Made by a program: the position numbers and the translations under genes. The notes beneath the pieces were generated by a model, which saw only the letters and a list, made by a program, of their open reading frames with translations, did not search any database and was not told the origin of the DNA. Positions 26,250 to 47,364 of a stretch of 64,000 nucleotides of DNA are shown one piece after another. Location: contig CAVOPE010000008.1 of assembly GCA_963697755.1 (NCBI GenBank), forward strand, positions 513,788 through 577,787. Reading direction: 5' to 3'. The DNA comes from an uncultured Gemmatimonadales bacterium. Its GTDB lineage: Bacteria; Gemmatimonadota; Gemmatimonadetes; Gemmatimonadales; GWC2-71-9. Within the stretch, counting starts at the first letter, position 1; every line of letters begins with the position of its first letter.

Positions 26250-27115
26250 CCCGGCGCTATCTCAAGCCCGCGCTCGGCACCCGGCGCTTGACGCACCTGA
26301 CGCCGCCGGACGTGCGCGAGATGCTGGCCGGTCTCACCCGCGACGGGCTCGCGCCGAGGACCGTGGGCTATGCGCGGGCCGTGCTGCGCCGGGCGCTCAA
26401 TCAGGCGGTGAGCGACGGCCTGATCCCCACCAACCCGGCGGCGGGCCACGGACTCGTGCCCAAGTTGGAGCGGCGCGAGATGCAGGTGTTGAGCGGGGCG
26501 CAGGTGAACGCGATCTTGGACGCGACCCGCGACGACCCGCATGGCGCGTTGTGGGCGACGTTATTCCTGACCGGCGTCAGGCCGTCCGAGGCGCTGGCGC
26601 TCAAATGGGCCGACGTGAACCTCGACCACGGGCAGCTACGGGTCGTGCGGAAGCTTCGCCGCCCGAAGAACGGCGCTGCGTATGTGCGTGGAGGACGTGA
26701 AGACCGCAGCGGGTCGCCGGGTGGTGCCGCTCGTAGGGCCGGCGGTGGACACGCTCGTGCGGCACCACGACCGGCAGGCCGTCGAGAAGGTGATCGCCGA
26801 GGCAGGGCTATCGAGGACAACGGCTTGGTGTTCGCCGATGCGCGTGGGAATCCGTTGCGAGGCGACGGGCTGTATAAGTACTTTTGGCGTCCGCTACTCC
26901 GGCGGCTCGGTCTGCCGCAGGTGCGGCTCTACGATGCGCGCCACAGCGCCGCGACGATGCTCCTGGAGGCCGGGGTGCCCATGAAGGTCGTGCAGGAGGT
27001 GTTGGGGCACAGCTCGATGGCGGTGACGGCGGACGTGTACAGCCACGTCACCCACGCGTTCAAGCGGCAGGCGGCGGACGCGCTGGCGGCCCATCTCGGC
27101 GCAATCACGGAATAG
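26250..27115 (+). pseudogene. Tyrosine recombinase/phage-type integrase, N-terminally truncated with two compensating frameshifts
   Basis: The main frame gives ...[16 protein letters not shown]...LTGVRPSEALAL...NGLVFADARGNPL...YDARHSAATMLLEAGVPMKVVQEVLGHSSMAVTADVYSHV (R..H..R..Y-type catalytic domain). Residues VEDVKTAAGRRVVPLVGPAVDTLVRHHDRQAVEKVIAEAG sit in another frame between about 26685 and about 26808. The arm-binding N-terminus is missing. Confidence 0.8.
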
Positions 27116-27155
27116 CACGGAATCAGGGGAGGGGTCAGGTTTCGTAAGTTGTTCA

Positions 27156-27228
<73 letters not shown>

Positions 27229-30337: not shown

Positions 30338-30494
30338 GCAACGAGTTGACGCGGCCTCGTGCAGCTGGACTTAGGTTCGCAGCAACATCCACAGATCAGA
30401 GGTCGGTTACAGCCCATGAGCCTCACGTTGAGAGCGGTGGCCGAGCTGCCGCCTTGCCGTAGCCCTTCGAGTGGGCACTGCAGGGAGAGGTCTC

Positions 30495-33400: not shown

Positions 33401-33646
33401 AAGGTCATCCCCACCACGAGCGGGCAGTCGATCGAGCTGATCGCGGACCTCTTCAACGTCCTGAACCTCATCGATGGTGACTGGGGGGTCCGGCGGTTCA
33501 TCGAGGATACTCGGATCCTGAGGCTGGTCGGCTATGACGCGGCGAACGGCCGCGGGATCTACGCGTTCGACACTCAGGATCCCAACATTCGTGATCACGA
33601 GGCCACCCGCTGGCGGATGCAGCTCGGGGCGCGGTACACGTTTTAG
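30495..33646 (+). pseudogene. TonB-dependent receptor with carboxypeptidase-regulatory-like N-domain, interrupted by a 1-nt frameshift near 32437
   Basis: Track ORFs 30471..32588 and 31982..33646 join as ...GGVGVFSGRPA / IHWISSVYGGTGLN.... It has a signal peptide MNTLRTTLVFVAAAWPLAVGGLAAQG and a C-terminal ...QLGARYTF beta-barrel end. Confidence 0.8.
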
Positions 33647-33668
33647 CCAATGTTACCATTCCTTCACC

Positions 33669-33811
33669 GATCTAGTACCTGAGCAGTACCTGAACTCCGC
33701 ATTCCTGGAGGGGTCTGGCCGGCGCTGGGCGACGATGCTGCGGACCGTAAGGCCTTGCTGGAAAGTGCCTAACGGTTCTCCGCAGGTCTCAGTGGATAAG
33801 CCCCTGACGCC
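33669..33811 (+). repeat. 143-nt island right-arm repeat, copy 1 (partner at 45893-46035)
   Basis: Hand alignment with 45893-46035 shows no net length difference and about 30 mismatches in 144 positions. Both copies directly precede a tRNA-Phe 3' repeat, and both contain the tandem GTACCTGA...GTACCTGA. Confidence 0.75.
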
Positions 33812-33853
33812 CTGAAAATCCGCGTGTCGGGGGTTCGATTCCCTCTCTGGCCA
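33812..33853 (+). repeat. tRNA-Phe 3' fragment (att repeat 1), 42/42 identical
   Basis: ctgaaaatccgcgtgtcgggggttcgattccctctctggcca equals tRNA positions 32-73 (anticodon loop to 3' end). Confidence 0.9.
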
Positions 33854-34226
33854 TTGCACTTAGCCCACCGCTCGACTCTCCACCTTTGACCGACCTTTGT
33901 CCATTTCGCCCGGATCGCCGGGCGGGGTGTGGATTTCGGTCGCGACGTCAAAGACGGCGTCCTCGGACGGTGCCCGGTAGACAGGGAATATTGTCTCCCA
34001 GTAATACCAGGCACCCGCCGAAAGCAGCAGGGCAGGCAGGCCGAGGATCACAATGAGATCCTTGGCCAAGCGCCAGACTTCTCGGAAGGAGGCGGCGTCA
34101 TAGGGGTAGCCGCAGTAGAGGCAGCGATGGTGGTCTGACCGGTCACGGATGCGCGCGCTCTGCTGAGATCGTAGGACGCATCGTTCTTCGCGGCCACCCC
34201 TTGCATGCCGCGAACGCTTGCGTTAA

Positions 34227-34250
34227 ATACTGAACCATATGGTTCAGTAT
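34227..34250. promoter_or_regulatory. Perfect 24-nt palindrome, probable ArsR-family operator
   Basis: ATACTGAACCAT|ATGGTTCAGTAT lies immediately upstream of (or overlapping) the arsR-family start codon. Confidence 0.6.
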
Positions 34251-34604
34251 ATGACGACCCGACTTGATACTTCGTTCGCCGCGCTCTCGGACGCCACGCG
34301 GCGTGGCGTTCTGGAGCAGCTCGGACGAGCCGACGCTTCGATCACGGACCTTGCCGAGAAGTTCCACATGACGCTCACGGGCATGAAGAAGCACGTCGGC
34401 GTTCTGGAGCAGGCGGGGCTCGTCACCACGAAGAAGATCGGGCGCGTGCGGACGTGCCAGCTGGGCCCGCGCCGATTGGAGGAAGAGACGGCGTGGCTCG
34501 AGAGGTACCGCCAGCGCTGGGACGAACGCTTCGACGAGTTGGACAAGGTTGTCGAGGAACTGACACGAAAGGAGAAGAGCGATGAACGCAAGAATCGAAA
34601 GTAA
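34251..34604 (+). CDS. ArsR/SmtB family transcriptional regulator
   Basis: FAALSDATRRGVLEQLGRADASITDLAEKFHMTLTGMKKHVGVLEQAGLV (winged HTH). The track start at 34239 is an alternative. Confidence 0.85.
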   Translation: MTTRLDTSFAALSDATRRGVLEQLGRADASITDLAEKFHMTLTGMKKHVGVLEQAGLVTTKKIGRVRTCQLGPRRLEEETAWLERYRQRWDERFDELDKVVEELTRKEKSDERKNRK

Positions 34605-35100
34605 GCCCGGCCCCGTGAAGAACCGCACCACGGTGGAACGGAAGTCGGACCGCGAGGTGGTTGTCACGCGGACCATCAACGGCCCGGCGCGCATCGTGTT
34701 CGAGGCATTTACCAAGGCCGAGCTGCTCAAGCGTTGGTGGGTGCCCAAGTCGATGGGAATGACCCTGCTGTCCTGCGAGGTGGATGCTCGTGTCGGAGGC
34801 AAGTACCGATTGGTATTCGACCACGGTGGCCCCGAGCCTGCCGCGTTTTTCGGCACGTATGTCGAAGTGAAGCCGTATTCGCGCCTCGCGTGGACCAATG
34901 AGGAAGGTGGCGAGGGCGGGCCTGTCACCACGGTGACCTTCGAGGAAAAGGGCGGCAAGACGCTGGTGGTCCTGCACGAGAGCTATCCTTCGAAGGAAGC
35001 GCTCGACGCTGCCGGCACCGGAGCAGCCGATGCAATGGTCGAGACGTTCGATCAGCTGGACGAGCTTCTCGTCGCCCTGGGTGAGAGCTCGGGACAGTAA
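34582..35100 (+). CDS. SRPBCC/AHSA1 (activator of Hsp90 ATPase homolog 1-like) family protein
   Basis: 172 aa, with ...INGPARIVFEAFTKAELLKRWW...GGKYRLVF.... It overlaps the arsR end, a common ArsR-SRPBCC pair. Confidence 0.8.
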   Translation: MNARIESKPGPVKNRTTVERKSDREVVVTRTINGPARIVFEAFTKAELLKRWWVPKSMGMTLLSCEVDARVGGKYRLVFDHGGPEPAAFFGTYVEVKPYSRLAWTNEEGGEGGPVTTVTFEEKGGKTLVVLHESYPSKEALDAAGTGAADAMVETFDQLDELLVALGESSGQ

Positions 35101-35213
35101 CAGAGACGTGGATCTCGCGGTCGGTCGTCCGATAGTCCCGGCTCACACTGGCCGGGGCTATCGGGTCCCACGGTACGTAGTCTCATCTGTCCCGACATGA
35201 GTGCGTGGGCGCC

Positions 35214-35351
35214 ATCTAACGACTTGCGCATCAGCTGCAAGCGACTCGCTCGCTCATACATCAACCTTACGTTCCACCGCCCGCCATCGGCGGGTGGCGG
35301 TTGACTAAACTTCGCCCAGTAGCGCTTGTCGGCTGCATGCGCTGGTTAGGC
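35214..35351 (-). other. attC-like recombination site (minus strand), 138 nt, canonical cores
   Basis: On the minus strand it reads GCCTAAC-cagcgcatgcagccgacaag ... internal hairpin ... cgcttgcagctgatgcgcaagtc-GTTAGAT. It lies downstream of the minus-strand gene 35594..35950. Confidence 0.7.
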
Positions 35352-35593
35352 GGCACCTGGGACGTTTGACCCACGCGAAGCGCTCGCTTGAAACGCCTTT
35401 CGCACGATGACACTCATGTTCTCTGCCACCCCGCTCGACCAGCGATCGAGCGAGGTGGGGATACCACCTAGCTCATCGGGGTCAGCAGCGACGCCTTCCC
35501 TCAACGTCAGCGACAAGGCCATAGCTAACACGGCCGAAGCAGTAGTCGGGCGCGAAGCCGGAACGCCACGCGCCCGGTACTGCCGTACTCGGT

Positions 35594-35950
35594 CTACTCT
35601 TCTCCCATCGCCCCCTCGACCGCGCGAGCTAGAACGGCTCGCCGGACCGCGCGCTTCACAAGCGCCCTCTTCAGCGCACGCTTCTTCAGCGCACGCTTCT
35701 TCAGCGCACGCTTCGCGACCGCCCTCTTCAGCGCACGCTTCTTCAGCGCACGCTTCGCGACCGCCCTCTTCAGCGCACGCTTCTTCAGCGCGCGCTTCGC
35801 GACCGCCCTCTTCAGCGCACGCTTCTTCAGCGCGCGCTTTGCGACCGCGCTCTTCAGCGCACGCTTCTTCAACGCGCGCTCGGCCCGCTTCGCGACCGCC
35901 CGCTTCACTTTCCGCCTCGCTACCGCTTTCTTGATTGCTTTTCGTGGCAT
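35594..35950 (-). CDS. Lys/Ala/Arg-rich repeat protein (histone H1-like / AlgP-like)
   Basis: The ATG at 35950 is preceded by gaaggaggg. The product is MPRKAIKKAVARRKVKRAVAKRAERALKKRALKSAVAKRALKKRALKRAV... (118 aa), built from 14-aa repeats. Confidence 0.7.
   Translation of the reverse strand: MPRKAIKKAVARRKVKRAVAKRAERALKKRALKSAVAKRALKKRALKRAVAKRALKKRALKRAVAKRALKKRALKRAVAKRALKKRALKKRALKRALVKRAVRRAVLARAVEGAMGEE
35663..35876. repeat. About five tandem copies of a 42-nt coding repeat
   Basis: The unit cgcttcgcgaccgccctcttcagcgcacgcttcttcagcgca begins at 35709, 35751, 35793 and 35835, with partial copies on each side. It encodes AKRALKKRALKRAV on the minus strand. Confidence 0.85.
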
Positions 35951-36517
35951 TAGTCCCTCCTTCTGACTTGCCCGAGGACCGCGGGAACGCCCGCGCGCGA
36001 CGCTGCCACCCACGATGGGGTGGATGGACAGCCTGGCCCAATAGTAGTAAGGGTCTGGTAGGTGGCGTGGATAGTGGACTTTGGGACAGGCGGCAAGGCA
36101 GGCTCGAATGGAGCGTGGGTGGGAGGGCAACCTAGTGATTAAGAGTCCTCCAGCCTGGGCAGGCATTTTCGACAACTTGTTGGGAGTCGGCCACTGTTCG
36201 AGCCTCGGTGCCCGGTTCCTTGCCGGAGTTTGCCCGCTCAGGCGAGGCGGGGACGACATTTCCCTCACGCCAGAATTTTTATTTTTTGAACGGGGGGACT
36301 CCCACCCGCATCTTCCAGCGGTATAAGCTCGCGCCCTCATGACCCGGCCTATTCCACGGCCGGGAACTTCTGGAATTGAAGGGGGGCACCTGTGACCAAA
36401 CCTGTGTCCGAACACCAGACAACTGCAGACTACTGGGGACAACACACTGTTGTGTAAGTCCCGCAACGACAACACCTGGACAGTCCGGTGTAGTCCCGTA
36501 TTTTTCGATTTGAAGAA

Positions 36518-36559
36518 CTGAAAATCCGCGTGTCGGGGGTTCGATTCCCTCTCTGGCCA
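36518..36559 (+). repeat. tRNA-Phe 3' fragment (att repeat 2), 42/42 identical
   Basis: The same 42-nt block as 27187-27228. Confidence 0.9.
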
Positions 36560-36794
36560 TTGCAGTTAGCCCGCCGCACGACTCCCCATTGTACCCAAAC
36601 TGTACCTTAGCGATTGTGGCGCGAGCCCCGGAGGCACGGTGGTCGTGAAACTGGAGGCGGTTCGAAGTCGATGGGCACGGCCAGGGAAATACAGCGCTCC
36701 GTGAGGCGTGCGGCACCGGAGTCGCCGACTTAGGCTGCGGTGGTCGCAGTCTAATACCAGTTAGACAGCCGCTATATCCGGAACTGGAAGGCAG

Positions 36795-37322
36795 ATGCGT
36801 CGAGTCCTTTACCGAGTCGCCGCGAGCGTTGACGGGTACATCGCGGGGACCCGCGGCGAGGTGGATTGGATCATCCACGATCCCGCCGTGGACTTCGCGA
36901 AGCTGTACGAGTCCGTCGACACCGTGCTCTTGGGGCGGCGCACCTATGAACTCACCCGCCAACCGGGTGCGCCCGCCTGGCCGCCAGGCTGGCAGGTCTA
37001 CGTGTTTTCACGCACGCTGCCGCCGGAGGAACACGCCGGCGTGACGGTCGTGAGCGTCGACGCCGGTGCGCGCGTGGCTGCACTCCGCGCTTCGCCCGGC
37101 CGGGAGATTTGGCTGTTTGGAGGCGGTAGCCTGTTCCGGAGCCTACTCGAGGCCAAGCAGGTGGACCTCGTGGAGGTGCTCATCGTACCGGTCCTGCTGG
37201 GGGGCGGCATCCGACTTCTGAAACCAGGAGCAGCGCTGACGCGCCTCGATCTCGAGCACGTGCAGAGGTATCCAAGCGGGCTCCTCGGCTTGCGGTACCG
37301 GGTTCCCAATGCCGTTGTCTGA
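36795..37322 (+). CDS. Dihydrofolate reductase family protein (RibD C-terminal domain)
   Basis: 175 aa, with MRRVLYRVAASVDGYIAG...DTVLLGRRTYE...IWLFGGGSLFRSLL...LVPVLLGGG. A ggaagg RBS lies upstream. Confidence 0.8.
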   Translation: MRRVLYRVAASVDGYIAGTRGEVDWIIHDPAVDFAKLYESVDTVLLGRRTYELTRQPGAPAWPPGWQVYVFSRTLPPEEHAGVTVVSVDAGARVAALRASPGREIWLFGGGSLFRSLLEAKQVDLVEVLIVPVLLGGGIRLLKPGAALTRLDLEHVQRYPSGLLGLRYRVPNAVV

Positions 37323-37327
37323 CTCGC

Positions 37328-37356
37328 GCCTGCAGCTGATGCGCCAGTCGTTAGAC
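37328..37356 (+). other. attC 3' half (L'-R'), GTTAGAC at 37350-37356
   Basis: gcctgcagctgatgcgccagtcGTTAGAC. The only upstream partner is a weak GTCTGAC at 37317-37323, so this is a half-site or a very short attC. Confidence 0.55.
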
Positions 37357-37404
37357 AGCGGCACCGGCAATCGACAGCCCCTGAGTTGATGGAGGCTCAT
37401 TCTG

Positions 37405-37722
37405 GTGATCACGGACGAAGGCCTGGTCAATACGCCCATTCTAGCACATGCCGCAAGCGACCCCTCGGGAGTCATGTTTTCGATGGAGGAGATCGCCGAC
37501 GACAGCAACCATTACCTGGCGCAGGAGCTCGAACAGATGCTCTCGGGTGTGGATGCTCAGACTGTGTCCGAACTGAAGTCGGACCAGCAGTTCCTCTTTT
37601 TCCATGGCGAGCGATCCCCAGGCGACCAGGACCGCCAGGCACGTTTGTGCATAGTGAGTCAGTGCATCCAGCAAACGATAGACGAGCTGCGGCTGAACCT
37701 CCTTGCTCGTTCCACTGAGTGA
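37405..37722 (+). CDS. Hypothetical protein (acidic, 105 aa)
   Basis: Track ORF only, with no recognisable domain. The segment is AT-richer, and it overlaps the next ORF by 20 nt. Confidence 0.4.
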   Translation: MITDEGLVNTPILAHAASDPSGVMFSMEEIADDSNHYLAQELEQMLSGVDAQTVSELKSDQQFLFFHGERSPGDQDRQARLCIVSQCIQQTIDELRLNLLARSTE

Positions 37723-38380
37723 GTTCGAAGTAGACGGCTTGGCTTTGGTACGACGTGGCCATGCCTTTGCCCCTGTGCCGGCAGTCAACGGACAGAATGC
37801 TGCCTATTGGTTCATGAAGACAGTCGTCCGGCGCGGCTTGTGCGATGCGGTTTCGGTACGTCTTGATCCCTTGATGCATCGGCCCAGCTCAACGTTCCCC
37901 GGTGTAGAGTATCGCATGTGGCTGTACGGCCGAAATTTGGACCTCACGCAGCTTGTAGGTCTCTCCGAAGAACAGTTTGGCAGGTGGCTCCCAGGCAGGC
38001 TCTCCCGATCCGCAGAATTCACGGATTACGTCTGGTCTCCTCGAGATGGCGAGCTCCACCTGACGCTGGAGGAACTCCCTAAACGAGATGAAATACGCGT
38101 TCGTGGAAGTCGCTATCTGCACGCGATCTACGACCCCTCCGAGGAGCTGGTCATCTATCTCGACGGGGCGGTACGGGTCTTCGACCAGGAGCAGTGGGAG
38201 AGAAGGGCAGGGAGCCATGTCCGCAACTCGAGCAAGGCGGGCACAAGGATCAAGACGTTCCGCCTCAATCGTCAGGTGAACGTGGAAGACCTTACCTCGT
38301 TAGCGGCGTGCTATTTCGTCTGGAACTACGACGGCGCGAAGTTCTGCAGGGTGCCGATACGGGATGAACTGCTCGCGTGA
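37703..38380 (+). CDS. Hypothetical protein (225 aa; start uncertain, alternative ATG at 37814)
   Basis: Track ORF with no recognisable domain. It is followed 20 nt downstream by an attC 5'-half-like motif. Confidence 0.5.
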   Translation: MLVPLSEFEVDGLALVRRGHAFAPVPAVNGQNAAYWFMKTVVRRGLCDAVSVRLDPLMHRPSSTFPGVEYRMWLYGRNLDLTQLVGLSEEQFGRWLPGRLSRSAEFTDYVWSPRDGELHLTLEELPKRDEIRVRGSRYLHAIYDPSEELVIYLDGAVRVFDQEQWERRAGSHVRNSSKAGTRIKTFRLNRQVNVEDLTSLAACYFVWNYDGAKFCRVPIRDELLA

Positions 38381-38400
38381 TCACATCTCCCGGCGTCGCC

Positions 38401-38427
38401 GCCCAATGCGCGCGTGCAGCCGACAGG
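38401..38427 (+). other. Degenerate attC 5' half (R''-L'')
   Basis: GCCCAAT-gcgcgcgtgcagccgacagg compared with the family consensus GCCTAAC-ccgcgcatgcagccgacagg. The only downstream counterpart is a weak GCAGCTG at about 38481. Confidence 0.4.
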
Positions 38428-38489
38428 CCGGCGGAGGCGGGCCCCGTCGCCGGCACCGTCCACGGTACGCCGTCCGCGGAGCAGCTGCC

Positions 38490-39872
38490 TCAATGTCCAT
38501 CGTGGTCACTAACACCACGATACCGCGAGATCAACTGGCGCAACATCGCCGCATCGCTTATCGATGCGTTCTCTTTGAAAGCAAGGTTCGGCACGATCAA
38601 AAAGGCCAGGAGCGGGATGGCGATCGCGTAAACGTACTGCGTCCGCGACACGCCGATGCCGAACGGAAACCAGATGCCCCGCACGCCGATCGTATCGAGC
38701 AGCTCGCCGCCGAATAGCCCGGCCATAATCGAGGCTAACGTGGCGAGCGCCAGGATCTGCATTGGTCCGCTGCGGACAATGCGCGCGCCTATCACGACAA
38801 ACAGTGCGATCGACCCGAGCCGGCTGCCACTTGTCACACTCGCCGAATGGATCACGGCGCCGAAAATCCCGGCGACCGCCAATACCACAGCCGACACATC
38901 GATGCTTCGCCACGGACGTAGGCACCAGCGGTTCCAGGCCAACGTCCAGGCGGCCCCTGCTGGCACCCACATCACTGACGCCAGCCACGCATAGGTAGTC
39001 AGATCTACCAGATCGGTCCATGAGACGATCGCATTGCTGAGGCGCCTGGCTGCGGTAAGCGCAAGCGCGATGCTGGCAAAGATCCAGAAACCCTTGTGGC
39101 TGCTGCAAGACCGGCACCCGAGTGCCAAGCCGATGAGTGCCAACATGGCGATCGGCTCGATCACATCGACGATGTAACCGGCGATGGTTCGCTCCCATTG
39201 CACGCGGTGGAGCGCATCGCTTATCGGCCGCGGAGCCAGTATGGGCGCGCTGTGCATGCCGCCGCCGTCTGCGCTGACCCCGGAACTGGGAAGCATGTAT
39301 GTGCGGACAGCGAGCACGCCACGGGTGCCCGCCGCATCGGCGGGAAGGGCGAACCGCAGCGGCCGCGTGCCGACGACGCGCGGGGCTGGGCCGAGCATGC
39401 CCGACCCGCCTAGCCGTTGGCCGTTCCAATAGAGTTCGTAGCCGTCCTGGACGAGGGTCGGCCCGAGGATGTCCCACGACGCGCGTCCGGCCGGCACCGT
39501 CACCGCGCGCCGGTACCAGGCGTAGCCGTGATAGCTGGGATGACCGTGCGCCATCCACCCGCCTACGTAATCGGGCAGACCCACGTCGCCGTCGTGGCTG
39601 CCCGGCAAGGCGGTCATATCGACAGTCTCCCAACCGCTATCGTCTGTATTGGCGTCCGCCCAGTGTGGGTCATCGCCGGTATGGAATCGCCAGGAGCCAT
39701 CGAGCAGAGTAGCTGCGGCGCGCAGCGTCGGCGGATCAGGCCGGCCGCCGCTCGCCAAGTCGGCGATCACGATGGCCCACGCCATCAGCGTCGTTATGAC
39801 GATGCCGACGATCAGTTTGCGTTGTGTTGCGTCGATGGATGTCGCCGTCGAAGATGTCGATTTGGGCATCAT
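38490..39872 (-). CDS. 7TMR-DISM-type membrane sensor module without output domain
   Basis: 460 aa. After an N-terminal TM segment comes an extracellular sugar-binding-like domain (WRFHTGDDPHWADANTDDSGWETVDM...YHGYAWYRRAVTVPA...YELYWNGQRLGG), then seven predicted TM segments and a short tail. Confidence 0.7.
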   Translation of the reverse strand: MMPKSTSSTATSIDATQRKLIVGIVITTLMAWAIVIADLASGGRPDPPTLRAAATLLDGSWRFHTGDDPHWADANTDDSGWETVDMTALPGSHDGDVGLPDYVGGWMAHGHPSYHGYAWYRRAVTVPAGRASWDILGPTLVQDGYELYWNGQRLGGSGMLGPAPRVVGTRPLRFALPADAAGTRGVLAVRTYMLPSSGVSADGGGMHSAPILAPRPISDALHRVQWERTIAGYIVDVIEPIAMLALIGLALGCRSCSSHKGFWIFASIALALTAARRLSNAIVSWTDLVDLTTYAWLASVMWVPAGAAWTLAWNRWCLRPWRSIDVSAVVLAVAGIFGAVIHSASVTSGSRLGSIALFVVIGARIVRSGPMQILALATLASIMAGLFGGELLDTIGVRGIWFPFGIGVSRTQYVYAIAIPLLAFLIVPNLAFKENASISDAAMLRQLISRYRGVSDHDGH

Positions 39873-40196
39873 GCGATGATCTCATCGTCGGGTTTTCGAT
39901 GTCGGCAAACAGGCTACTACTGGTAACTACGCAGGTCGCCGCCTTAACGTGCCACACGGCGCCGGATCTGTTATCGCCGTCTCTGAGCGACAAGAGATCC
40001 TAGAGCCGTCCGGGTAAGAGGCTAGAGAGATGACCCAGGCACGGTAAGAACTGCTCACCAAGATTGAGCAGGGCACCACACTATTTCGTCCTGAAGAGAC
40101 TTGCCCGGGCGTGGACACATCGTTCACCGCGGTCTTCGGTCTTCGATCGCCTCATGCCGGTCGGCTTTCCCAGAGCGTCCGCCAACGAGCATCGCG

Positions 40197-40523
40197 ATGA
40201 ATCGTTTCGGCATTCCTGCGAACACAGAGCAGAGGATAAGGGCACGAGACACGCGCTGCGTGTACTGTGGCAAGCAATTCTCCCACGCTTCACGTAAGGA
40301 CATGCCGACCATCGAGCATCTGCACGAGAAGCGGCCCTTCTATTGGGAGGAAGGCCTGAAGGAGGAGGGTCTGGCCATTTGCTGCGGTAGCTGCAACTCC
40401 AGCAGGGGAAACAAGAGCTTGCAGGAATGGTTACAGACGTCCTATTGCACGCAGCGCGACATGCCCATAAACAGCAGTACTGTCGCGGAGCCGGTGAGAA
40501 GATACCTCCGATCCGCAAGGTGA
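40197..40523 (+). CDS. HNH endonuclease family protein
   Basis: Trimmed to the ATG at 40197. The sequence MNRFGIPANTEQRIRARDTRCVYCGKQF...TIEHL...CCGSCNSSRGNKSLQEW shows the CxxC...H...CxxCN HNH pattern. Confidence 0.7.
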   Translation: MNRFGIPANTEQRIRARDTRCVYCGKQFSHASRKDMPTIEHLHEKRPFYWEEGLKEEGLAICCGSCNSSRGNKSLQEWLQTSYCTQRDMPINSSTVAEPVRRYLRSAR

Positions 40524-40876
40524 GCGCTCGAAGTCACGGATGACCATCAAGGCGAAACAATCTCGCAAGCATTGTGATTTTTTTCTGAAGGCACCATCGA
40601 CCGATTTTTCTCCCCAAGCATCCTCGCGACCCCCTGGCCAGGCCTTTGCTCGGGCCACCAACTCGTACGCACCGAAATCCGGTTACTACGCTCGCGTCTC
40701 GGTGTCGGCCAGCTCGCCCGAGGACGCACGGGTTCCGGTCAAGCACCGGGACTACAGCACGGGACACGCCATTCTGGTCACGAGACGACACGGTTTGTGA
40801 AGCAGCCGAATATTATTGAGCAGAAGGCTTATAGGGATACCTGGGGATGATAGGCGAAGGGGGGACAAAGAAGACA

Positions 40877-41494
40877 ATGAAAACATCACTTCAGGCAAGC
40901 AAGAGCGTACTGTCGCTCATTGACCACCAATCAAATCTGTTCAATGGAATCATGTCGCACAAGCCGGCATATGTAAAAAATAATGTGCTGGCATTGGCAA
41001 AAGGTGCTTCGATATTGGATATTCCGGTTGTACTAACCGTTATAAGTCCACAAACAAACGGACCGATGATTTCTGAAATCACTGAAATGTTTCCGGATGT
41101 TTTTGTAATAGTCCGCAAGCATCCCTCATTCAATGCTTTTGACGAGCCAGAATTTGTTCAGGCAATAAAAAGTACGGGACGAAAACAACTTGTACTTACC
41201 GGTCTGTGGACGAGCATGTGTATGTCGTTCAGCGCACAGCAAGCTTTGCAGGAAGGTTTTGAAGTTTTCGGAGTGATGGATACTTCCGGCTCCGAATCGT
41301 TGGATGCATACAATATGGCTGTGCAACGTATGATTGGTGCAGGAGTAATACCTTGCACGTGGATGCAAACTGTTTCTGAATGGATGGATAACTGGCTAAA
41401 TCCTAAAGCTGGCGACATGTTCACTCAAGTGTATTGTCCGTACAGCAAAGGCAATCCATTTTTTGACCAAGATATGCCTGAAGGCACCAATTAG
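40877..41494 (+). CDS. Isochorismatase-family cysteine hydrolase
   Basis: Trimmed to the ATG at 40877. It has SLIDHQ (Asp) and LVLTGLWTSMCM (Cys) motifs. This is the most AT-rich gene in the window by eye. Confidence 0.75.
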   Translation: MKTSLQASKSVLSLIDHQSNLFNGIMSHKPAYVKNNVLALAKGASILDIPVVLTVISPQTNGPMISEITEMFPDVFVIVRKHPSFNAFDEPEFVQAIKSTGRKQLVLTGLWTSMCMSFSAQQALQEGFEVFGVMDTSGSESLDAYNMAVQRMIGAGVIPCTWMQTVSEWMDNWLNPKAGDMFTQVYCPYSKGNPFFDQDMPEGTN

Positions 41495-41667
41495 AGTGCC
41501 CGCGAGATTGGCGGTGCTGGACTCCCGCCGGCGGGTGGAGTGACGTACGCAACGGTGCTCGTCGTCGTGGTCAGCCTCGGACTCCTTGCGGTAGAAGCCG
41601 CCAGACGACGGGCCCCCCTCAGGGGTCCCTAGGCTCAACAGCTCTGCAAGCTGGCGCACTCGTCGCG

Positions 41668-41985
41668 TTGATACGTCTCAGCCTGTTCTGGGCTGGGCTC
41701 GCGCTGTACAGTGGCCACACCGACTCGCGGCAAGGTGCGGGCTACGCGCTGTTGATTTTGAACGCCGTGGTTGAATTAGCGCTCGCCGCGTCACTGTACG
41801 ACAGGCAACCGGGCCTGCCCTTGATGGTGGCCGGATTGATTCTGCTAACCAGTCTCTTGTTGGGGTTCGTGGGATGGCTGCGATTCGCCCGCCATTTGGG
41901 GGAGCGGCCTAACCCGCGCATGCAGCCGACAGGCTGGACGGGCACCGGGCTCCGCTCGGGCGACGCCTCCGCTGAGGCCCACTAA
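41668..41985 (+). CDS. Small hydrophobic cassette protein (3 predicted TM segments)
   Basis: Track ORF with a TTG start inside a degenerate R'-like GTTGATA at 41667. Its 3' end runs into the attC at 41907. Confidence 0.45.
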   Translation: MIRLSLFWAGLALYSGHTDSRQGAGYALLILNAVVELALAASLYDRQPGLPLMVAGLILLTSLLLGFVGWLRFARHLGERPNPRMQPTGWTGTGLRSGDASAEAH

Positions 41986-42048
41986 GGAAGCATTGGTTTG
42001 TGCGGGCGCGGGCTTGAGGGCCTGCAGCTGATACGCAAGTCGTTAGGC
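41907..42048 (+). other. attC-like recombination site, 142 nt, canonical cores
   Basis: GCCTAAC-ccgcgcatgcagccgacagg ... ggcctgcagctgatacgcaagtc-GTTAGGC. R'' is the exact reverse complement of R'. Confidence 0.75.
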
Positions 42049-42101
42049 AGCGACTGGAGTCCACCGAGGGTTGGCAGCTCCGCCGTGGGAGTGGAGGCAG
42101 G

Positions 42102-42484
42102 TTGATCGAGGGAGGATCGGACCCGAGCGCGAGGCGCGTGGAGTCCGTGGCGGACATCGACGCGCTCATCACGGATACGGCCGCCGTGCTGGTGGTCCGG
42201 CCGGACGATCGCAAGCTCGCGGCGCTCGGTCGGCTGAACGCGCTCCGGCGGCTGTACCGGGAAGGCCCCTCGCAGGTCACCGACAGTGGGCTGTGCTATC
42301 TCGTCACCTTCCCGCTCGAGGTGCTCGACTTGGGGGAGAGCTCCCAGATCACTGACCACGGGCTGGTAGAGCTGCGACTGATCCGCAGTTTGCGCTGGCT
42401 CGAGGTGACGGGGTGTCCCCGCTCACCGTGGCCGGGCTCCAGGCGCTCCAGGCGGCGCTTCCACGGTGTGAGATCGTCGCGTAG
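42102..42484 (+). pseudogene. Leucine-rich-repeat protein cassette, frameshifted in a G/C run near 42411-42420
   Basis: The track frame gives ...LDLGESSQITDHGLVELRLIRSLRWLEVTG. The LRR C-terminus PLTVAGLQALQAALPRCEIVA* continues in another frame, ending at TAG 42482-42484. The 269-aa track ORF is a read-through into the next cassette. Confidence 0.6.
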
Positions 42485-42486
42485 CC

Positions 42487-42512
42487 GCTGCCTGATGCGC
42501 AAGTCGTTAGAC
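42487..42512 (+). other. attC 3' half (L'-R'), GTTAGAC at 42506-42512
   Basis: gctgcctgatgcgcaagtcGTTAGAC. No family-type R''/L'' half lies upstream. Confidence 0.55.
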
Positions 42513-42533
42513 CGACAGACAAGCATCATCAAC

Positions 42534-42911
42534 ATGCGAAGGTCGCGGATTGGACTTGGACTGGCGGGAGTGTTCGCAGTTGCCGCAGCCGCGGGGCTCT
42601 GGACTGCCCCAGCGTGGCTCATCGACCGAATCGCAAGATGGTTTTCGGGCTGCCTATACCGAGTGTCGACCAGAGCGCCGCTCCTCGCGCTGACGATCGA
42701 CGATGGCCCTGACCCGAGCACAACACCCCTCATACTGGCCGAACTGCGTCGTCACGGCGCGCGCGCAACATTCTTTCTGATTGCTGAACGCGTCGCGGGA
42801 CAGCAGGAGTTGGTGTGCAGGCTCGTGGCCGAGGGACATGAACTCGGGAATCATTTCACGCGGAATCGGCCGAGTATTCGGTTGGACCCAGTTGCGTTCG
42901 TTTGCAGCTGA
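42534..42911 (+). pseudogene. Polysaccharide deacetylase (NodB-domain) cassette, 3'-truncated
   Basis: MRRSRIGLGL... has an N-terminal TM segment, then LALTIDDGPDPSTTPLILAELRRHGARATFFLIAERV...GHELGNHF. The domain then breaks off, and the stop TGA 42909-42911 lies inside the attC GCAGCTGAT motif. Confidence 0.65.
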
Positions 42912-42928
42912 TTTGCAATCCGTTAGAC
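42899..42928 (+). other. attC 3' half (L'-R'), GTTAGAC at 42922-42928
   Basis: cgtttgcagctgatttgcaatccGTTAGAC, fused directly to the truncated deacetylase ORF. Confidence 0.55.
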
Positions 42929-42954
42929 AGCTGCACCAAGTGTGAGGGGGCAAG

Positions 42955-43329
42955 GTGAGCTGGGAAATCGCGTGGGCTGAGGCCGGCGTCGCACGTCGCT
43001 TCGTACAGCGGCTGTCTCAGCTGAGCGCACGTGACCGGCGGCCGGCGCTGCCGCTTTTACTCGATAGCGACCCCTATCTGAGCGCCTGGATCAATGTCGA
43101 GGCAGCGCTGGGGAGCGTACCAGATGCTGATCAGGGGCGGTTCCGGGAACTCATTGCAGAATTGGATGCGGAACTGGACCACGTGGACATACTTCCGAGC
43201 TTTCGTGAGGCGGCGCGCCGAACCGTGCTGGCACTCCTGGCACGCCGATGGCTGCTGACCCCCGAGAGCTTCACCTTTGTTTACGAACCATTTGAGAAAG
43301 TGATCCCCTTAACCTCACTCAGTGAGTGA
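42955..43329 (+). CDS. Hypothetical cassette protein (124 aa)
   Basis: Track ORF with a GTG start preceded by gaggggg. It has no recognisable domain and is bounded by attC elements. Confidence 0.5.
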   Translation: MSWEIAWAEAGVARRFVQRLSQLSARDRRPALPLLLDSDPYLSAWINVEAALGSVPDADQGRFRELIAELDAELDHVDILPSFREAARRTVLALLARRWLLTPESFTFVYEPFEKVIPLTSLSE

Positions 43330-43353
43330 CGGCCAGTTAGGGCGCCGGTAGCT

Positions 43354-43481
43354 GTCCACCCCGCTCATGCAGCCGACAAACGCGGTCGACGTTGGGCGCC
43401 GCCCGCGTCCAGCCCTCCCCGCGGCGACAAAGGACCGTAGGTTGTCACAGGTCGTTTGCAGCTGATTAGCCATCCGTTAGG
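43354..43481 (+). other. attC-like site, 128 nt, degenerate R'' (GTCCACC)
   Basis: gtccacc-ccgctcatgcagccgacaaa ... cgtttgcagctgattagccatcc-GTTAGGC. Confidence 0.55.
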
Positions 43482-43555
43482 CGGCCACGAGCATCGGTTG
43501 GTGGGTTAGCAAAGAGCGTCTCTGCAATCGTCTCGCGCTGAACTAAGGGGGCAGT

Positions 43556-43933
43556 ATGAGTGAGGCTGCTTGGTCGGAGCACGTGTCGAACCTGAACGCA
43601 ATGCTCGACACTCTCGAAGGCCGAGTACGGAGCGGGGATCGGAGCACACCCGGACTCTCGGAGTTGAAGAGCGCCCTAGACGATCTACGGCTGCGGACCT
43701 GGAGCCTGCTTACAGCGATTCACGAGGATGATCCCCACGCCTTTCAGGAGCAGTTCCGCACGTTACGTGGCACTGAGATGTGCCGCGCGCTGAGCATAGA
43801 CCTGCGGACAGGGAAGATGAGTGGCCGACAGCCGGACGTGCCGGCTCTGGGCGCCGCCGCGCGTGATCTAGCAGCAGCAGTGAAGGAAGGGGCCGGGAAG
43901 GCTCCAAAGCGGCGCGGCAAGGGTACCCCCTGA
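43556..43933 (+). CDS. Hypothetical cassette protein (125 aa, helical, basic C-terminal tail)
   Basis: Track ORF with a gggggca RBS-like stretch upstream. It has no recognisable domain. Confidence 0.5.
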   Translation: MSEAAWSEHVSNLNAMLDTLEGRVRSGDRSTPGLSELKSALDDLRLRTWSLLTAIHEDDPHAFQEQFRTLRGTEMCRALSIDLRTGKMSGRQPDVPALGAAARDLAAAVKEGAGKAPKRRGKGTP

Positions 43934-43942
43934 GCGCTGGCC

Positions 43943-44079
43943 GCCTAACCCGCGCATGCAGCCGACGGGCCGCTCGGCCTCGCGTTCCGCTCGGGCGCTG
44001 CCCCCCGACGGCGGCCAACGGAACGTACGTTCGTGCGGGCGGGCATGATCGCCCGCAGCTGATGCGCATTTCGTGAGGC
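43943..44079 (+). other. attC-like site, 137 nt (R'' GCCTAAC, R' GTGAGGC)
   Basis: GCCTAAC-ccgcgcatgcagccgacggg ... cgcccgcagctgatgcgcatttc-GTGAGGC. There is one mismatch in the R' core. Confidence 0.65.
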
Positions 44080-44110
44080 TGACAGTAGCCAACCTTCGGG
44101 CGAGACAGCA

Positions 44111-44308
44111 ATGCTCTTTCGATTCGGTCCCCTGCACCGCACCGCGGGATGGTTGCTGACTCTGCTCGGTCTGCTCGCGCTCGCAGTGGGAGGGCGCGGG
44201 TATCTGACTGGAGCGCCTGTGCGCCCCGGGTGGGTACTTGGAGGACTGATCGGGATCGTCGTTGGGACCGCCCTGGTGCGGTGGGCGCGCCGAGCTTGCC
44301 CGGACTAG
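44111..44308 (+). CDS. Small membrane cassette protein (65 aa, 2 predicted TM segments)
   Basis: Track ORF, hydrophobic, lying between attC elements. Confidence 0.4.
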   Translation: MLFRFGPLHRTAGWLLTLLGLLALAVGGRGYLTGAPVRPGWVLGGLIGIVVGTALVRWARRACPD

Positions 44309-44325
44309 GCTTCTCGCCGGCTGCA

Positions 44326-44352
44326 GCCTCACCCGCGCATGCAGCCGACAAG
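44326..44352 (+). other. Terminal attC 5' half (R'' GCCTCAC) with decayed 3' part
   Basis: gcctcac-ccgcgcatgcagccgacaag. Downstream there is only a faint cctgatcgcactgacga resemblance to L'-R'. Confidence 0.45.
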
Positions 44353-44730
44353 CCCGGGCGATGCGGGTGCTTCGCCTGGATCCCCTGATCGCACTGACGA
44401 TCTCATGTCCCGTCCGGCGGTGACGTATCCAATCCATTCTTGCCAAGCGGCCAATTCCGCCGACCACGCCCCTGCCGTCGTGGGGAACTTGAAAAGTCAG
44501 TCTCGCTAACAGGGGCGATGTCGCCCGATAGCCCCTACACGTTGGGAAAGGACTCGGGACTCGCCTCACTCGACAGGCAAGAGTGGGGGGAAGGCTAACT
44601 CGGGTAGCTCCCCTTTGGGGGCTTCCCCAATCAAGAGGCTAGGGCAGCGGGGTATCAAGAGGATAACAACTCGCACTTCCCGCAAGCTAAGCGGCCACGC
44701 TGCAAGTGGTTGCAAAGCCAGATATCCGTG

Positions 44731-44772
44731 CTGAAAATCCGCGTGGCGGGGGTTCAATTCCCTCTCTGGTCA
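44731..44772 (+). repeat. tRNA-Phe 3' fragment (att repeat 3), 39/42 identical
   Basis: ctgaaaatccgcgtgGcgggggttcAattccctctctggTca, with three substitutions. This is the most diverged copy. Confidence 0.8.
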
Positions 44773-44912
44773 CTCTTCGCAACCTGAAGGCGACCTAACT
44801 CACGAAGGGGCCACCTGGGGATGGTGGCCCTTTCGACACCTAGCACCTATAGATCCCCAATACAATCTGCCGGACTCGATACTAAGGGCGCTGACCTTTA
44901 ACATTCGGGAGC

Positions 44913-45836
44913 ATGCAGCAGGGCCGTCGCGCACCAGTACACATTATGGCGCGATCAAGAGGATTTCGAGCTGCTGCAGAACGGGAGGTTCCCACGCTAG
45001 TCTTCGAGAGCGCGCGCGTCGACGCCGCTGGCGCAACCGATATTGGCAAAGTTCGACAAACGAATGAGGACCAGTACCTCATCGCGGGACTCCGGCGGGT
45101 CGTCGAGATCGAGGAGACCAGCATCCCAATCGAGGGCCGGCTGGGATTCACTCGGGGCGCGAGCGCGCTGCTGCTCCTCGTGGCCGACGGCGTGGGTGGC
45201 GGCAAGGGTGGCGAGGAGGCGAGCAGCCGAACGCTTGACACGATCGTACGGTACGTCGCCGGCTCCTCACTCTTCTTCTCCAACCTGGACCAAGAGGGTC
45301 AGCGCGCACTCCTGCACGACCTGACGCTTTCGGTGCAGTGGAGCCACGCCGCTGTGCGGAACGAGGCGGCGGCGAGCACCAGCCTGCAGGGGATGGCCAC
45401 GACGCTCACCATGGTCCTCGTGCTCTGGCCTCGGGCCTACGTCGTCCAGATCGGCGACAGCCGCTGTTACCACCTGCGCACACCCACCATCACGCAAGTC
45501 ACCAAGGACCAGACGATGGCCCAACAAATGATCGACCAGGGCGTGCTCCCCGCCGCGGCTGCCGAACGGTCGCCGCTGAGCCACGTCCTGTCCCAGGCGG
45601 TGGGCAACAAGGAGAGCGAGATCTGGCCCGAGATCTCGTCCCTGGACCTAGAGCCCGGCGACACCCTGCTGCTCTGCACCGACGGGCTCACCAAGCACGT
45701 GGCCGAGGCCCAGATCGCCGAATTGATGACGAAGGCGGAGTCGGCCAAAGGGGCATGCGCCTCGCTGATCAATGCGGCACTGACAGACGGCGGCAGCGAC
45801 AACGTCACGGTGGTTGTGACCCGCTTGCTCACCTAA
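44913..45836 (+). CDS. PP2C-family serine/threonine phosphatase
   Basis: 307 aa with TDIGKVRQTNEDQ, VADGVGG, DSRCY, LLLCTDGL and GGSDNVTVVV motifs. Confidence 0.88.
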   Translation: MQQGRRAPVHIMARSRGFRAAAEREVPTLVFESARVDAAGATDIGKVRQTNEDQYLIAGLRRVVEIEETSIPIEGRLGFTRGASALLLLVADGVGGGKGGEEASSRTLDTIVRYVAGSSLFFSNLDQEGQRALLHDLTLSVQWSHAAVRNEAAASTSLQGMATTLTMVLVLWPRAYVVQIGDSRCYHLRTPTITQVTKDQTMAQQMIDQGVLPAAAAERSPLSHVLSQAVGNKESEIWPEISSLDLEPGDTLLLCTDGLTKHVAEAQIAELMTKAESAKGACASLINAALTDGGSDNVTVVVTRLLT

Positions 45837-45892
45837 GCGCCGGGCAAACGGGCAGTACTACGCGGTGCAGATTGACCGCACTCCTCTTACCG

Positions 45893-46035
45893 GATCTAGT
45901 ACCTGAGTCGTACCTGAACTCCTCATTCCTAGAGGGTTCTCGCCGGTACGGGGCGACTCCGTGGGGAACCGTAAGTCGTTGCTCGAAGGCGCCTAACCGA
46001 TCTCCGCGGTTCTCAGCGAATCAGCCGCTGACACC
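45893..46035 (+). repeat. 143-nt island right-arm repeat, copy 2
   Basis: See 33669-33811. It holds the same position relative to the att repeat. Confidence 0.75.
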
Positions 46036-46078
46036 CTGAAAATCCGCGTGTCGGGGGTTCGATTCCCCTCTCTGGCCA
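46036..46078 (+). repeat. tRNA-Phe 3' fragment (att repeat 4), one extra C
   Basis: ctgaaaatccgcgtgtcgggggttcgattccCctctctggcca. It is followed by a terminator, so it is probably the ancestral tRNA 3' end. Confidence 0.85.
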
Positions 46079-46101
46079 TTCAACTCGATCGTTCACTCAC
46101 G

Positions 46102-46147
46102 GCGGCAACGAGTTAGCCTGGTCGGGCTCGTTGCCGCTTCTTTCGTT
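46102..46147 (+). terminator. Rho-independent terminator
   Basis: An 11-bp perfect stem, gcggcaacgag / ctcgttgccgc (46102-46112 / 46127-46137), is followed by ttctttcgtt. Confidence 0.75.
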
Positions 46148-46293
46148 ACCAGCGCTTTTCGCGACTGGAAATCGCGTGGTACCGCCCGCCCGCTCTTGAC
46201 ACCCGCGAAACCAGCGCAAATCATTGCACTTCGGTTGCAACCGTGGTGGACCTCCTCGCCCGCCCTCCCCACCAGCTGGACGATCAAGGGCCT

Positions 46294-47364
46294 ATGCCGG
46301 ACCTACGTAGGGCTCAACCAGATTACGCTCTGAACCCGTTTCGACTGAGCCGCCTGCTGGCGGTGACGTTGATGCTTGCCGTCGGCGCATGCGGCGGCGG
46401 CAGCGGGGATGCAGCACTACCTCCCGGGGGTGGCGACCCGACGTCGCCGGAGCCGCCCTCGACGCCCGAACCGCCGCCCACGTCACCGGAGCCGCCCGCC
46501 GCCCCGCCACCGGCTCCCCCACTTCCACCGAGCAGCCCGCCCGTTCACGCCGGAATTCCGTTCGGCCCGAACGTGTACACCAAGCACGAGAGCTCCACCT
46601 CGATCATACCACCGTCGGGCATCGATCCCGCGTTCACCGGGCTGGTGACGGCCGCCTATCCCCCGACCCTGATCGCCAAACTGGAAGCGGCTCGCCGGGT
46701 CAACGGCCGGGTGCTCCTCAGTTTCGCCGGCAATTCCGACTTCTACCGTGATAGCAACGGATTCAATCTGTCGATGTGGAAGGCAAAGACCGATCGGTTT
46801 CGGGGCATCGATATCTCGTCCTACATCGCCGACGGCACACTGATGGGCAATTTCCTCATGGACGAGCCGAGCGATCCCAAGAACTGGTTTGGTCACCAGG
46901 TCTCGCGGGCGGACATCGACGAAATGGCCAGGTACAGCAAGGAGATATGGCCTGATCTGCCCGCCATCATCCGCGGTTGGCCGTGGTATCTGAAGGGCTA
47001 TCAGTACAAGTATCTGGACGCCGCCTGGGCCCAGTACCACGCGCGCTTCGGCTCCATCGACGACTTCATCGCCACCAACAGTCGTGACGCGAAGGACCTT
47101 GGATTGTCACTGGTCATCGGCCTGAACGCGCTGTCCGGCGGCGGCGAGCACGGAATGCAGGGTTTCTATAAGGACAAGTTTTCGATGACTGCCTCGCAAT
47201 TGAAAACCTGGGGCGGCACCCTGCTTGCCCAGCCGTACGGCTGCGCCTTCTTCATGTTCAGGTACGACACGGTCTACTTCGCTCGGCCCGATATCCGAGA
47301 GGCCATGGCCGAGCTGAGCCAGAAGGCGCAGAGTCTTCCGGTCCAACCGTGCCGGAGGTTGTGA
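46294..47364 (+). CDS. Hypothetical lipoprotein with Pro-rich linker
   Basis: Trimmed to the ATG at 46294. It has a lipobox (LAVGAC) and a PEPP-rich linker. The globular domain is of unknown function. Confidence 0.6.
   Translation: MPDLRRAQPDYALNPFRLSRLLAVTLMLAVGACGGGSGDAALPPGGGDPTSPEPPSTPEPPPTSPEPPAAPPPAPPLPPSSPPVHAGIPFGPNVYTKHESSTSIIPPSGIDPAFTGLVTAAYPPTLIAKLEAARRVNGRVLLSFAGNSDFYRDSNGFNLSMWKAKTDRFRGIDISSYIADGTLMGNFLMDEPSDPKNWFGHQVSRADIDEMARYSKEIWPDLPAIIRGWPWYLKGYQYKYLDAAWAQYHARFGSIDDFIATNSRDAKDLGLSLVIGLNALSGGGEHGMQGFYKDKFSMTASQLKTWGGTLLAQPYGCAFFMFRYDTVYFARPDIREAMAELSQKAQSLPVQPCRRL

Follow-up and report, generated by a model that had tools for sequence, protein, structure and literature searches.

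Clusters of attC sites that lack an integron integrase (IntI), known as CALINs, owe their definition to Cury et al. (2016), who found them abundant with IntegronFinder (PMC4889954), and the origins listed for them are loss of the integrase gene (intI), rearrangement and secondary-site insertion. Integrons are on record in Gemmatimonadota (PMC8618304), and island-borne integrons have been described (PMC3575428). The locus considered here lies in a 64,000-nucleotide (nt) stretch, called the window, of contig CAVOPE010000008.1 (assembly GCA_963697755.1, positions 513,788 to 577,787) from an uncultured Gemmatimonadales bacterium. An earlier note on this DNA had seen in it an integron-style cassette array without an integrase, placed in a tRNA-Phe island, and had judged that combination unusual, a judgement that the precedents just cited do not bear out. 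The locus is a CALIN under the published definition. It is very probably a cassette array of a Gemmatimonadales integron family without intI in cis, and on balance the array appears to have arisen by loss of intI from a platform at the same spot.

Like other CALINs, the window array carries two or more attC sites on one strand and no intI nearby, and it is small. Its cassettes are mostly of unknown function and include no resistance genes, and intI loss is a published route to such clusters; it differs in keeping a recognisable intI-proximal attI-type region. With the sedentary chromosomal integrons of Xanthomonas and Treponema (PMC3607928, bioRxiv 10.1101/2025.06.18.660453) it shares a lineage-specific attC family, with 80-88% full-length similarity across species, and integrase decay, which is seen in the Gemmatimonadales relatives L046, L118 and L002 (L numbers denote the loci compared). 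The window array, however, is short, half-degraded and set in a variable tRNA island, whereas sedentary arrays hold a conserved chromosomal position. The 'inverted integrase' group of Boucher et al. (2007; cited in PMC3575428), of Treponema denticola type, offers a likeness of orientation: in complete relatives of the window array intI lies upstream of attI and points the same way as the cassettes, although the window itself has no intI. Salmonella genomic island 1 (SGI1, with In104) likewise carries a cassette array in an island bounded by direct repeats of the 3' end of its target gene, but the class 1 integron of SGI1 is complete and stands on a transposon backbone, and SGI1 has its own island integrase, whereas the window has neither IntI nor an intact island integrase and its target is tRNA-Phe.

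The repeats that define the array are two partner motifs, which occur as first described, far above chance and confined to the array region. The R'-end motif (TGCAGCTGATGCGCAAGTCGTTAGRC) ends on the plus strand at 37356, 42048, 42512, 42928, 43482 and 44079 and on the minus strand at 35214; the earlier note had all of these ends right except 43482, which it placed one base off, at 43481. The R''-end motif (GCCTAACCCGCGCATGCAGCCGAC) starts at 38401, 41907, 43354, 43943 and 44326 on the plus strand and at 35351 on the minus strand. By Hamming scan the window holds seven copies of the former and six of the latter, plus a seventh, degenerate R'' (GTCTGAC) at 37317 that is part of a 40-nt mini-site. 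A pattern search allowing up to three mismatches gave four matches to each motif, against 0.1 and 0.0 expected from shuffled controls, and no further copies were found elsewhere in the 64 kb by Hamming scan, covariance model or nhmmer, both motifs being confined to 35.2-44.4 kb. In the complete units (41907-42048, 43354-43482 and 43943-44079 on the plus strand, 35351-35214 on the minus strand) the two halves have the 128-142 nt spacing first reported, and each unit lies directly 3' of a short open reading frame (ORF).

The reading of these units as attC sites (59-base elements) stands on detection by a model of foreign sites, on IntI-adjacent relatives, on covariation in the hairpin and on cassette ends at G/TT, where the slash marks the crossover point. 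One genome per species (GTDB representatives) was scanned with the pattern TGCAGCCGAC-N70-100-GCAGCTGAT, giving at least 118 loci. Among the 118 matches listed, single matches in unrelated taxa were about as many as chance would give by a back-of-envelope estimate, and multi-match loci were almost all in Gemmatimonadales metagenome-assembled genomes (MAGs), where 8 kb contain 3-11 co-oriented copies at intervals of 350-1100 nt. When the other 84 of these loci were re-checked with the model, family sites appeared in just three Ca. Eisenbacteria loci, with two weak matches besides; within this set of 118, then, cassette arrays of the family are almost confined to Gemmatimonadales MAGs. The bottom strands of 98 sites from the multi-match loci, none of them from the window, made up the family alignment, and the covariance model R1 was built on these foreign sites alone.

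Searched with filters off, the window gave four full-length R1 matches: 41903-42052 (132.1 bits, E 1.9e-33), 43939-44083 (115.7 bits, E 4.3e-29), 35210-35355 (108.9 bits, E 2.7e-27, in the opposite orientation) and 43350-43486 (102.8 bits, E 1.1e-25). Their strands agree with the prediction from the cassette ORFs, and the site at 35214-35351 was also found by nhmmer (E 3.6e-27). At the mini-site R1 matched 48 nt (37313-37360; 35.4 bits, E 7e-8), skipping the 100 model positions in the centre, and beyond these there was no further R1 match at E < 0.05 in the 64 kb. A local sequence-only profile (nhmmer) picked out half-sites at 44323-44379, 42895-42931, 42492-42515 and 38399-38432, and none outside the array. 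Rfam at its gathering threshold finds only tRNA in the window, and it offers no attC family. For the clustering used to define CALINs, the minus strand is the bottom strand of 41903-42052, 43350-43486 and 43939-44083 alike; 4.5 kb separate the mini-site from the next full site, and the clustering might keep it apart from the full sites.

The hairpin is backed by strong covariation. On the bottom strand it combines a 7-bp R box (GCCTAAC/GTTAGGC) with an asymmetric spacer and with an L stem that two invariant unpaired bases interrupt. Under a structure of the 7-bp R box plus an 18-bp L stem, 96.5% of the cells in the family alignment pair, against 20-40% in slid controls, and 190 cells are changed on both sides, compared with 64.7 in shuffles, none of 500 of which equalled that count. 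The compensatory changes run between GCGCA/TGCGC, GCTAA/TTAGC and GCAAA/TTTGC, and the inner stem is of GGCC, GCGC or AACG type. The two invariant unpaired bases (C and T) break the 3' arm of the bottom strand at the place of the attC extrahelical bases; the central spacer is mostly paired in this family, which would set its geometry apart from that of aadA7-type sites. Folding the bottom strands of the window sites as DNA, a check proposed in the earlier note, shows the R box, the L stem and two bulged bases, as in the site at 41907-42048 with its 7-bp R box. The imperfectly complementary inner arms described at the outset, with their unpaired bases, are seen both in the folds and in the family alignment. 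The AAC/GTT triplets are nearly invariant across that alignment, and in the window GCCTAAC...GTTAGGC (41907-42048) and GCCTAAC...GTTAGAT (35351-35214) fit RYYYAAC/GTTRRRY; R' deviates to GTGAGGC in 43943-44079 and R'' to the degenerate GTCCACC in 43354-43482.

Cassette ends carry a further mark. Over their first 10 nt, cassettes of the foreign arrays match the complement of their own attC's R'' flank at 8.74 of 10 positions, against 7.38 in shuffles (maximum 7.62), which is the footprint expected of circular cassettes opened at G/TT. The window cassettes score 7-10 of 10; the cassette at 43477 begins with TTAGGCGGCC, which complements its own R'' flank GGCCGCCTAA at all ten positions, and the rare TGAGGC cassette start is offset by the R'' GCCTCAC at 44326, a compensated T-to-G variant. 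The attC sites bound about ten co-oriented cassettes joined at G/TT.

The locus is not a complete integron, as no intI with the IntI-specific domain adjoins the array. Searches with TIGR02249 (the NCBIfam integron integrase model) and in six frames with IntI1 and two Gemmatimonadales IntI proteins found no IntI within 36 kb upstream or 19 kb downstream of it. The initial impression that the window has no IntI-like ORF is borne out: its sole recombinase fails TIGR02249, and tblastn with the three IntI queries gives only a generic C-terminal match. A decayed IntI was considered for that recombinase (26288-27115) and rejected, its XerC/D-like scores exceeding its IntI score and TIGR02249 giving 43.6 bits against a cutoff of 265.

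Relatives of the array do have integrases. With IntI1 and then the recovered Gemmatimonadales proteins as tblastn queries, IntI homologues were found adjoining arrays in L016, L093, L046, L118 and L028. The L093 and L016 proteins, encoded at L093:4116-5063 and L016:1154-2104, pass TIGR02249 with 414 and 426 bits (cutoff 265) and have the IntI-specific WPWQWVFP patch in their sequences. From metagenome contigs a back-translated search brought 80 further IntI loci, in which R1 found 58 distinct sites; every one of them shares the strand of intI, and with a single exception they lie downstream of it. In these integrons intI is therefore co-oriented with the cassettes. The gene is decaying in some relatives, by an in-frame stop in L046, by a frameshift in L118 and down to a C-terminal remnant in L002. 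Integrase-less arrays with an attI-type core also occur elsewhere; L003 has one, and the L116/L040/L082 array, which is very large, is another. This last (CAWFGP010000003.1, 80-104 kb) has more than 30 family attC sites across three adjacent loci and starts at an attI-type core, and the 2.3 kb upstream of that start contain no intI, only a transporter-like gene.

Some of these integrons lie near tRNA genes. L118 (3069-4206) looks complete apart from its frameshifted intI and begins about 120-140 nt past a tRNA-Leu(TAA) gene; in L158 a tRNA-Arg lies about 630 nt upstream of intI, and in L199 a tRNA-Met about 6.7 kb upstream. As a general trait of these integrons tRNA adjacency was rejected, only L118 and L158 having a tRNA near intI among 60 metagenome IntI and 34 genome loci.

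The start of the array carries evidence on how it may have lost its integrase. The earlier note had reported no obvious attI, and had pictured the attC family as marooned in an integrase-less tRNA island; a putative attI-type core at 36746-36766, with an upstream intI-attI motif, corrects the first statement and suggests, against the second, an integron that lost intI. The array begins, as had been noticed, about 200 nt after a tRNA-Phe repeat, the core G/TTAGAC being at 36760, 201 nt past the 36518-36559 fragment. The window sequence GCAGTCTAATACCAG/TTAGAC fits the core pattern GCAGTCNAAT-N4-GTTAGRC, which in relatives lies 62-380 nt past the intI stop (L016, L118, L128, L135, L175 and L182/L184) and in L002 downstream of the intI C-terminal remnant, always on the intI strand where intI is present. 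In the metagenome set the pattern was found five times, each time downstream of intI, against a rough expectation of about 0.3 by chance. Directly upstream of the window core is the hairpin motif TTAGGCTGC-N-GCAG, which L016, L046, L136 and L002 have between intI and the attI core. Homology of cassette 1 to the RibD_C cassettes of L115 and L095 starts precisely at G/TTAGAC; in those arrays a full attC precedes the cassette, whereas the window has a different sequence in that place. To judge from these matches, the window keeps two putative intI-attI landmarks in order, compressed, with a tRNA-Phe fragment in place of intI. In a blastn comparison neither 36561-36745 nor 44350-44735 resembled the sequences that flank intI in relatives; matches are limited to the short attI core and the hairpin motif.

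The spacer between intI and the attI core has features of its own in Gemmatimonadales integrons. Dense G runs (GGGGTGGGG...) stand on its coding strand (L118:4230-4440, L016:2110-2470, L003:5270-5310), and L016 and L046 share a conserved hairpin followed by a TTGACAGG-type motif, with a looser form in L118; the pair may be a cassette promoter or an IntI-binding element.

How the array came to lack intI, and whether its repeats are recombination sites at all, can be weighed on this evidence. That the repeats are generic intergenic palindromes, of the kind of repetitive extragenic palindromes (REP) or miniature inverted-repeat transposable elements (MITE), is effectively refuted: they are indeed GC-rich imperfect palindromes of about 140 nt, intergenic and with unexceptional folding energies, but no copies lie outside the array in the 64 kb, other genomes show regularly spaced, co-oriented arrays directly downstream of IntI genes, and the RYYYAAC/GTTRRRY ends and own-cassette complementarity are those expected from G/TT crossovers. 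A rather unlikely account has the array parted from a surviving intI by rearrangement or island insertion, so that it would be the working part of a split integron served by IntI in trans. Four attC sites are intact, the inverted cassette (35214-35951) is a local rearrangement, and other Gemmatimonadales genomes hold several arrays with and without intI, as in MAG CAVWRM01, where L003, L035 and L041 have none and L046 has an intI bearing the in-frame stop. The array nevertheless keeps its intI-proximal end (attI-type core and hairpin motif), where a simple split would leave intI beside it; half of its sites are damaged, and the same cassette order in four other assemblies (99.4-99.9% identity) gives no sign of recent shuffling. 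Very unlikely is an array that never had a platform here, its cassettes put by an IntI from elsewhere into a fortuitous GTTAGAC of island DNA. This is a route to CALINs named by Cury et al. (PMC4889954), and upstream there is no detectable intI remnant; yet 21 nt at the junction match the attI-type core found downstream of intI in at least seven loci, a second intergenic motif stands just upstream in the correct order, and it would be unusual for one secondary site to have gathered about ten cassettes.

Several observations weigh against in-situ loss of intI from an attC array. Rearrangement is evident in the solo cassette at 35.2 kb, which is inverted, and in the attC-free 3.2-kb stretch, and it could also have parted the array from its integrase. 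Searches with the IntI queries found no surviving intI pseudogene fragment upstream of the array, so that loss in place is a matter of inference, and the candidate attI owes its assignment to similarity and position only; about 150 nt separate the two conserved intI-attI elements in L016 and L002, whereas in the window they overlap. The absence of IntI covers the window, and an IntI elsewhere in the genome would make the array functionally linked. The attC call itself rests on a family-specific model and context, and whole-site folding energies are no better than those of shuffles (z +0.5 to -2.4); such scores are uninformative in GC-rich DNA, and covariation was therefore relied on instead. 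Under the favoured reading, loss of intI in place, the ancestral state would be a chromosomal integron of Gemmatimonadales type, with intI transcribed toward attI and the cassettes, the latter presumably assembled by IntI acting at the attI-type site 36746-36766. The integrase gene would later have been lost, a tRNA-Phe 3'-fragment junction now standing where relatives carry intI. Without IntI in cis the array would then have decayed, with one internal attC deletion, four half-sites, one truncated gene and the 3.2-kb attC-free gap as the outcome. Were an IntI encoded elsewhere in the genome, it could still excise the four intact attC sites in trans.

Table 1. Positions of the array, its cassettes and the tRNA-Phe island in the window
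Feature	Position	Strand	Details
Generic tyrosine recombinase, frameshifted	26288..27115	+	PF00589 in two stretches; adjoins tRNA-Phe, about 9.6 kb upstream of array, beyond tRNA gene
Intact tRNA-Phe(GAA), anchor of tandem islands	27156..27228	+	ARAGORN; Rfam tRNA 71.6 bits
tRNA-Phe 3' fragment, direct repeat 1	33812..33853	+	42 nt, identical to gene 3' end; in L119 the 3' part of the intact tRNA
Inverted solo cassette, complete attC	35214..35351	- (bottom strand on +)	R1, nhmmer; ORF 35349-35951 (-), basic K/R-rich repeat protein
tRNA-Phe 3' fragment, direct repeat 2	36518..36559	+	Left boundary of array-bearing segment
attI-type region (putative)	36730..36766	+	Hairpin motif TTAGGCTGCGGTGGTCGCAG, then core GCAGTCTAATACCAG/TTAGAC; crossover between 36760 and 36761
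Cassette 1	36761..37350	+	RibD_C/DHFR-fold ORF 36795-37322 (PF01872, 6e-22) and 40-nt mini-attC 37317-37356
Cassette 2	37351..38440	+	ORFs 37405-37722 and 37916-38380, no Pfam/NCBIfam match; attC is R''/L'' half 38399-38432
attC-free 3.2-kb stretch inside array	38441..41660		460-aa membrane ORF (-), HNH-like ORF (+), isochorismatase (+)
Cassette	41668..42042	+	105-aa ORF 41668-41985; intact attC 41907-42048 (R1 132.1 bits)
Cassette	42043..42506	+	LRR-like ORF 42102-42485, no Pfam match; attC is R' half 42487-42512
Truncated cassette	42507..42922	+	N-terminal half of NodB polysaccharide deacetylase 42534-42911 fused to attC R' half 42895-42931
Cassette	42923..43476	+	124-aa ORF 42955-43329; full-length attC 43354-43482, degenerate R'' GTCCACC (R1 102.8 bits)
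Cassette	43477..44073	+	125-aa ORF 43556-43933; attC 43943-44079, R' GTGAGGC (R1 115.7 bits)
Last cassette	44074..44385	+	65-aa ORF 44111-44308; attC cut after R''/L'' half 44323-44379 (nhmmer E 1.8e-8)
tRNA-Phe 3' fragment, direct repeat 3	44731..44772	+	3 mismatches; right boundary of array-bearing segment
tRNA-Phe 3' fragment, direct repeat 4	46036..46078	+	End of island region
aa, amino acids; LRR, leucine-rich repeat

The state of the sites along the array is uneven. Among the nine attC positions of the plus-strand array are three sites that are intact or almost intact, one of full length whose R'' is mutated, one mini-site and four halves. A deletion between the TGCAGC repeats of the two arms best accounts for the loss of the central ~100 positions from the mini-site. 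Three of the halves are further described by nhmmer: 38399-38432 covers profile positions 113-146 (E 0.019) and contains the motif with four mismatches, 42487-42512 covers positions 2-25 (E 0.0018), and the R' half fused to the NodB fragment has an E of 6.6e-7. For the R'' half at 38401 an R' partner across the 3.2-kb stretch was sought by eye, and the candidate near 41637-41671 was set aside as not significant by Hamming scan and nhmmer.

The ORFs between the sites had been described as short, co-oriented and functionally unrelated; the RibD_C/DHFR-fold and NodB assignments are supported by Pfam, and the putative LRR protein has no Pfam match. The RibD_C cassette, with homologues in the arrays L115 (82% at the amino acid level) and L095, is the sole window cassette with homologues in the sampled arrays, and the NodB fragment covers only profile positions 3-64 of 124 of PF01522. 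The LRR-like ORF is frameshifted relative to L119, where the gene call is 127 aa. The attC-free stretch, which is probably an insertion or rearrangement scar, contains a 460-aa multi-pass membrane ORF (38490-39872, minus strand) that ends at a degenerate attC, a weak HNH-like ORF (40101-40523, plus strand) and an isochorismatase (40847-41494, plus strand) of distinctly low GC content, about 0.55. The inverted cassette's ORF (35349-35951, minus strand) has a very basic product with 15/27/42-nt tandem repeats (KRALKKRALKRAVA-like) and no family match. The frame of the LRR-like ORF (in 42102-42911) is broken relative to L119, and that in 30471-33646 relative to L120, which may reflect long-read indel errors in the window; calls of a frameshift, that of the recombinase included, are therefore to be taken with caution. 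The second of these regions is a receptor of the TonB-type outer-membrane class, two overlapping ORFs in the window and an intact 1050-aa gene in L120.

That the array is nested in a tRNA-Phe island, as first proposed, is supported by the tRNA gene, its four 3' fragments, low GC content and presence/absence polymorphism. GC content drops to 0.55-0.65 over ~25-47 kb, against 0.69-0.77 in the flanks. The 5' 28 nt of tRNA-Phe are duplicated at 25544-25571, and between this duplicate and the intact gene lies a 1.6-kb insert with an S-adenosylmethionine (SAM) methyltransferase on the minus strand and the recombinase on the plus strand, an arrangement that suggests an element targeting the 5' half of the tRNA. 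By Pfam, this frameshifted recombinase upstream of the tRNA is the only candidate island integrase, and the array-bearing segment 36560-44730 contains none.

By exact-protein look-up the array, with its cassettes in identical order, was also found in the four other assemblies (L119-L122; two long and two short contigs). In L119 an intact tRNA-Phe runs straight into the segment from 33812, and window positions 25572-33811, with the methyltransferase, the recombinase pseudogene, the tRNA copy, a Ser/Thr kinase and the TonB-type receptor, are missing; L120 has yet another left context. These differences make the locus a variable, tandemly filled tRNA-Phe hotspot in which the array is one module between the 36518 and 44731 fragments. 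The island block 33812-47320 is 99.4% identical to L119, and the adjacent core left of the tRNA (18633-25571) only 94.5%, which suggests that the island region was recently exchanged between diverged strains.

It is possible, though doubtful, that attI and the cassette array together are a passenger module of tRNA-Phe-targeting islands, moved by tRNA-fragment recombination rather than by IntI. The idea arises because the segment is bounded exactly by tRNA-Phe 3' fragments, because the 33.8-47.3 kb block is 99.4% identical where the adjacent core is 94.5%, and because L118 has intI immediately downstream of a tRNA-Leu gene. If it were true, cassette arrays would need no integron integrase in order to spread and persist.

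What is new here is descriptive: a lineage-specific attC family and a putative attI-type site for the integrons of Gemmatimonadales, an abundant soil group in which integrons had so far been recorded only at phylum level. The locus would also be a snapshot taken after integrase loss, with attI kept, attC sites eroding by internal deletion and truncation, and cassette order frozen across strains. Such a snapshot leaves the current picture of integron biology unchanged and would help to explain how CALINs originate.

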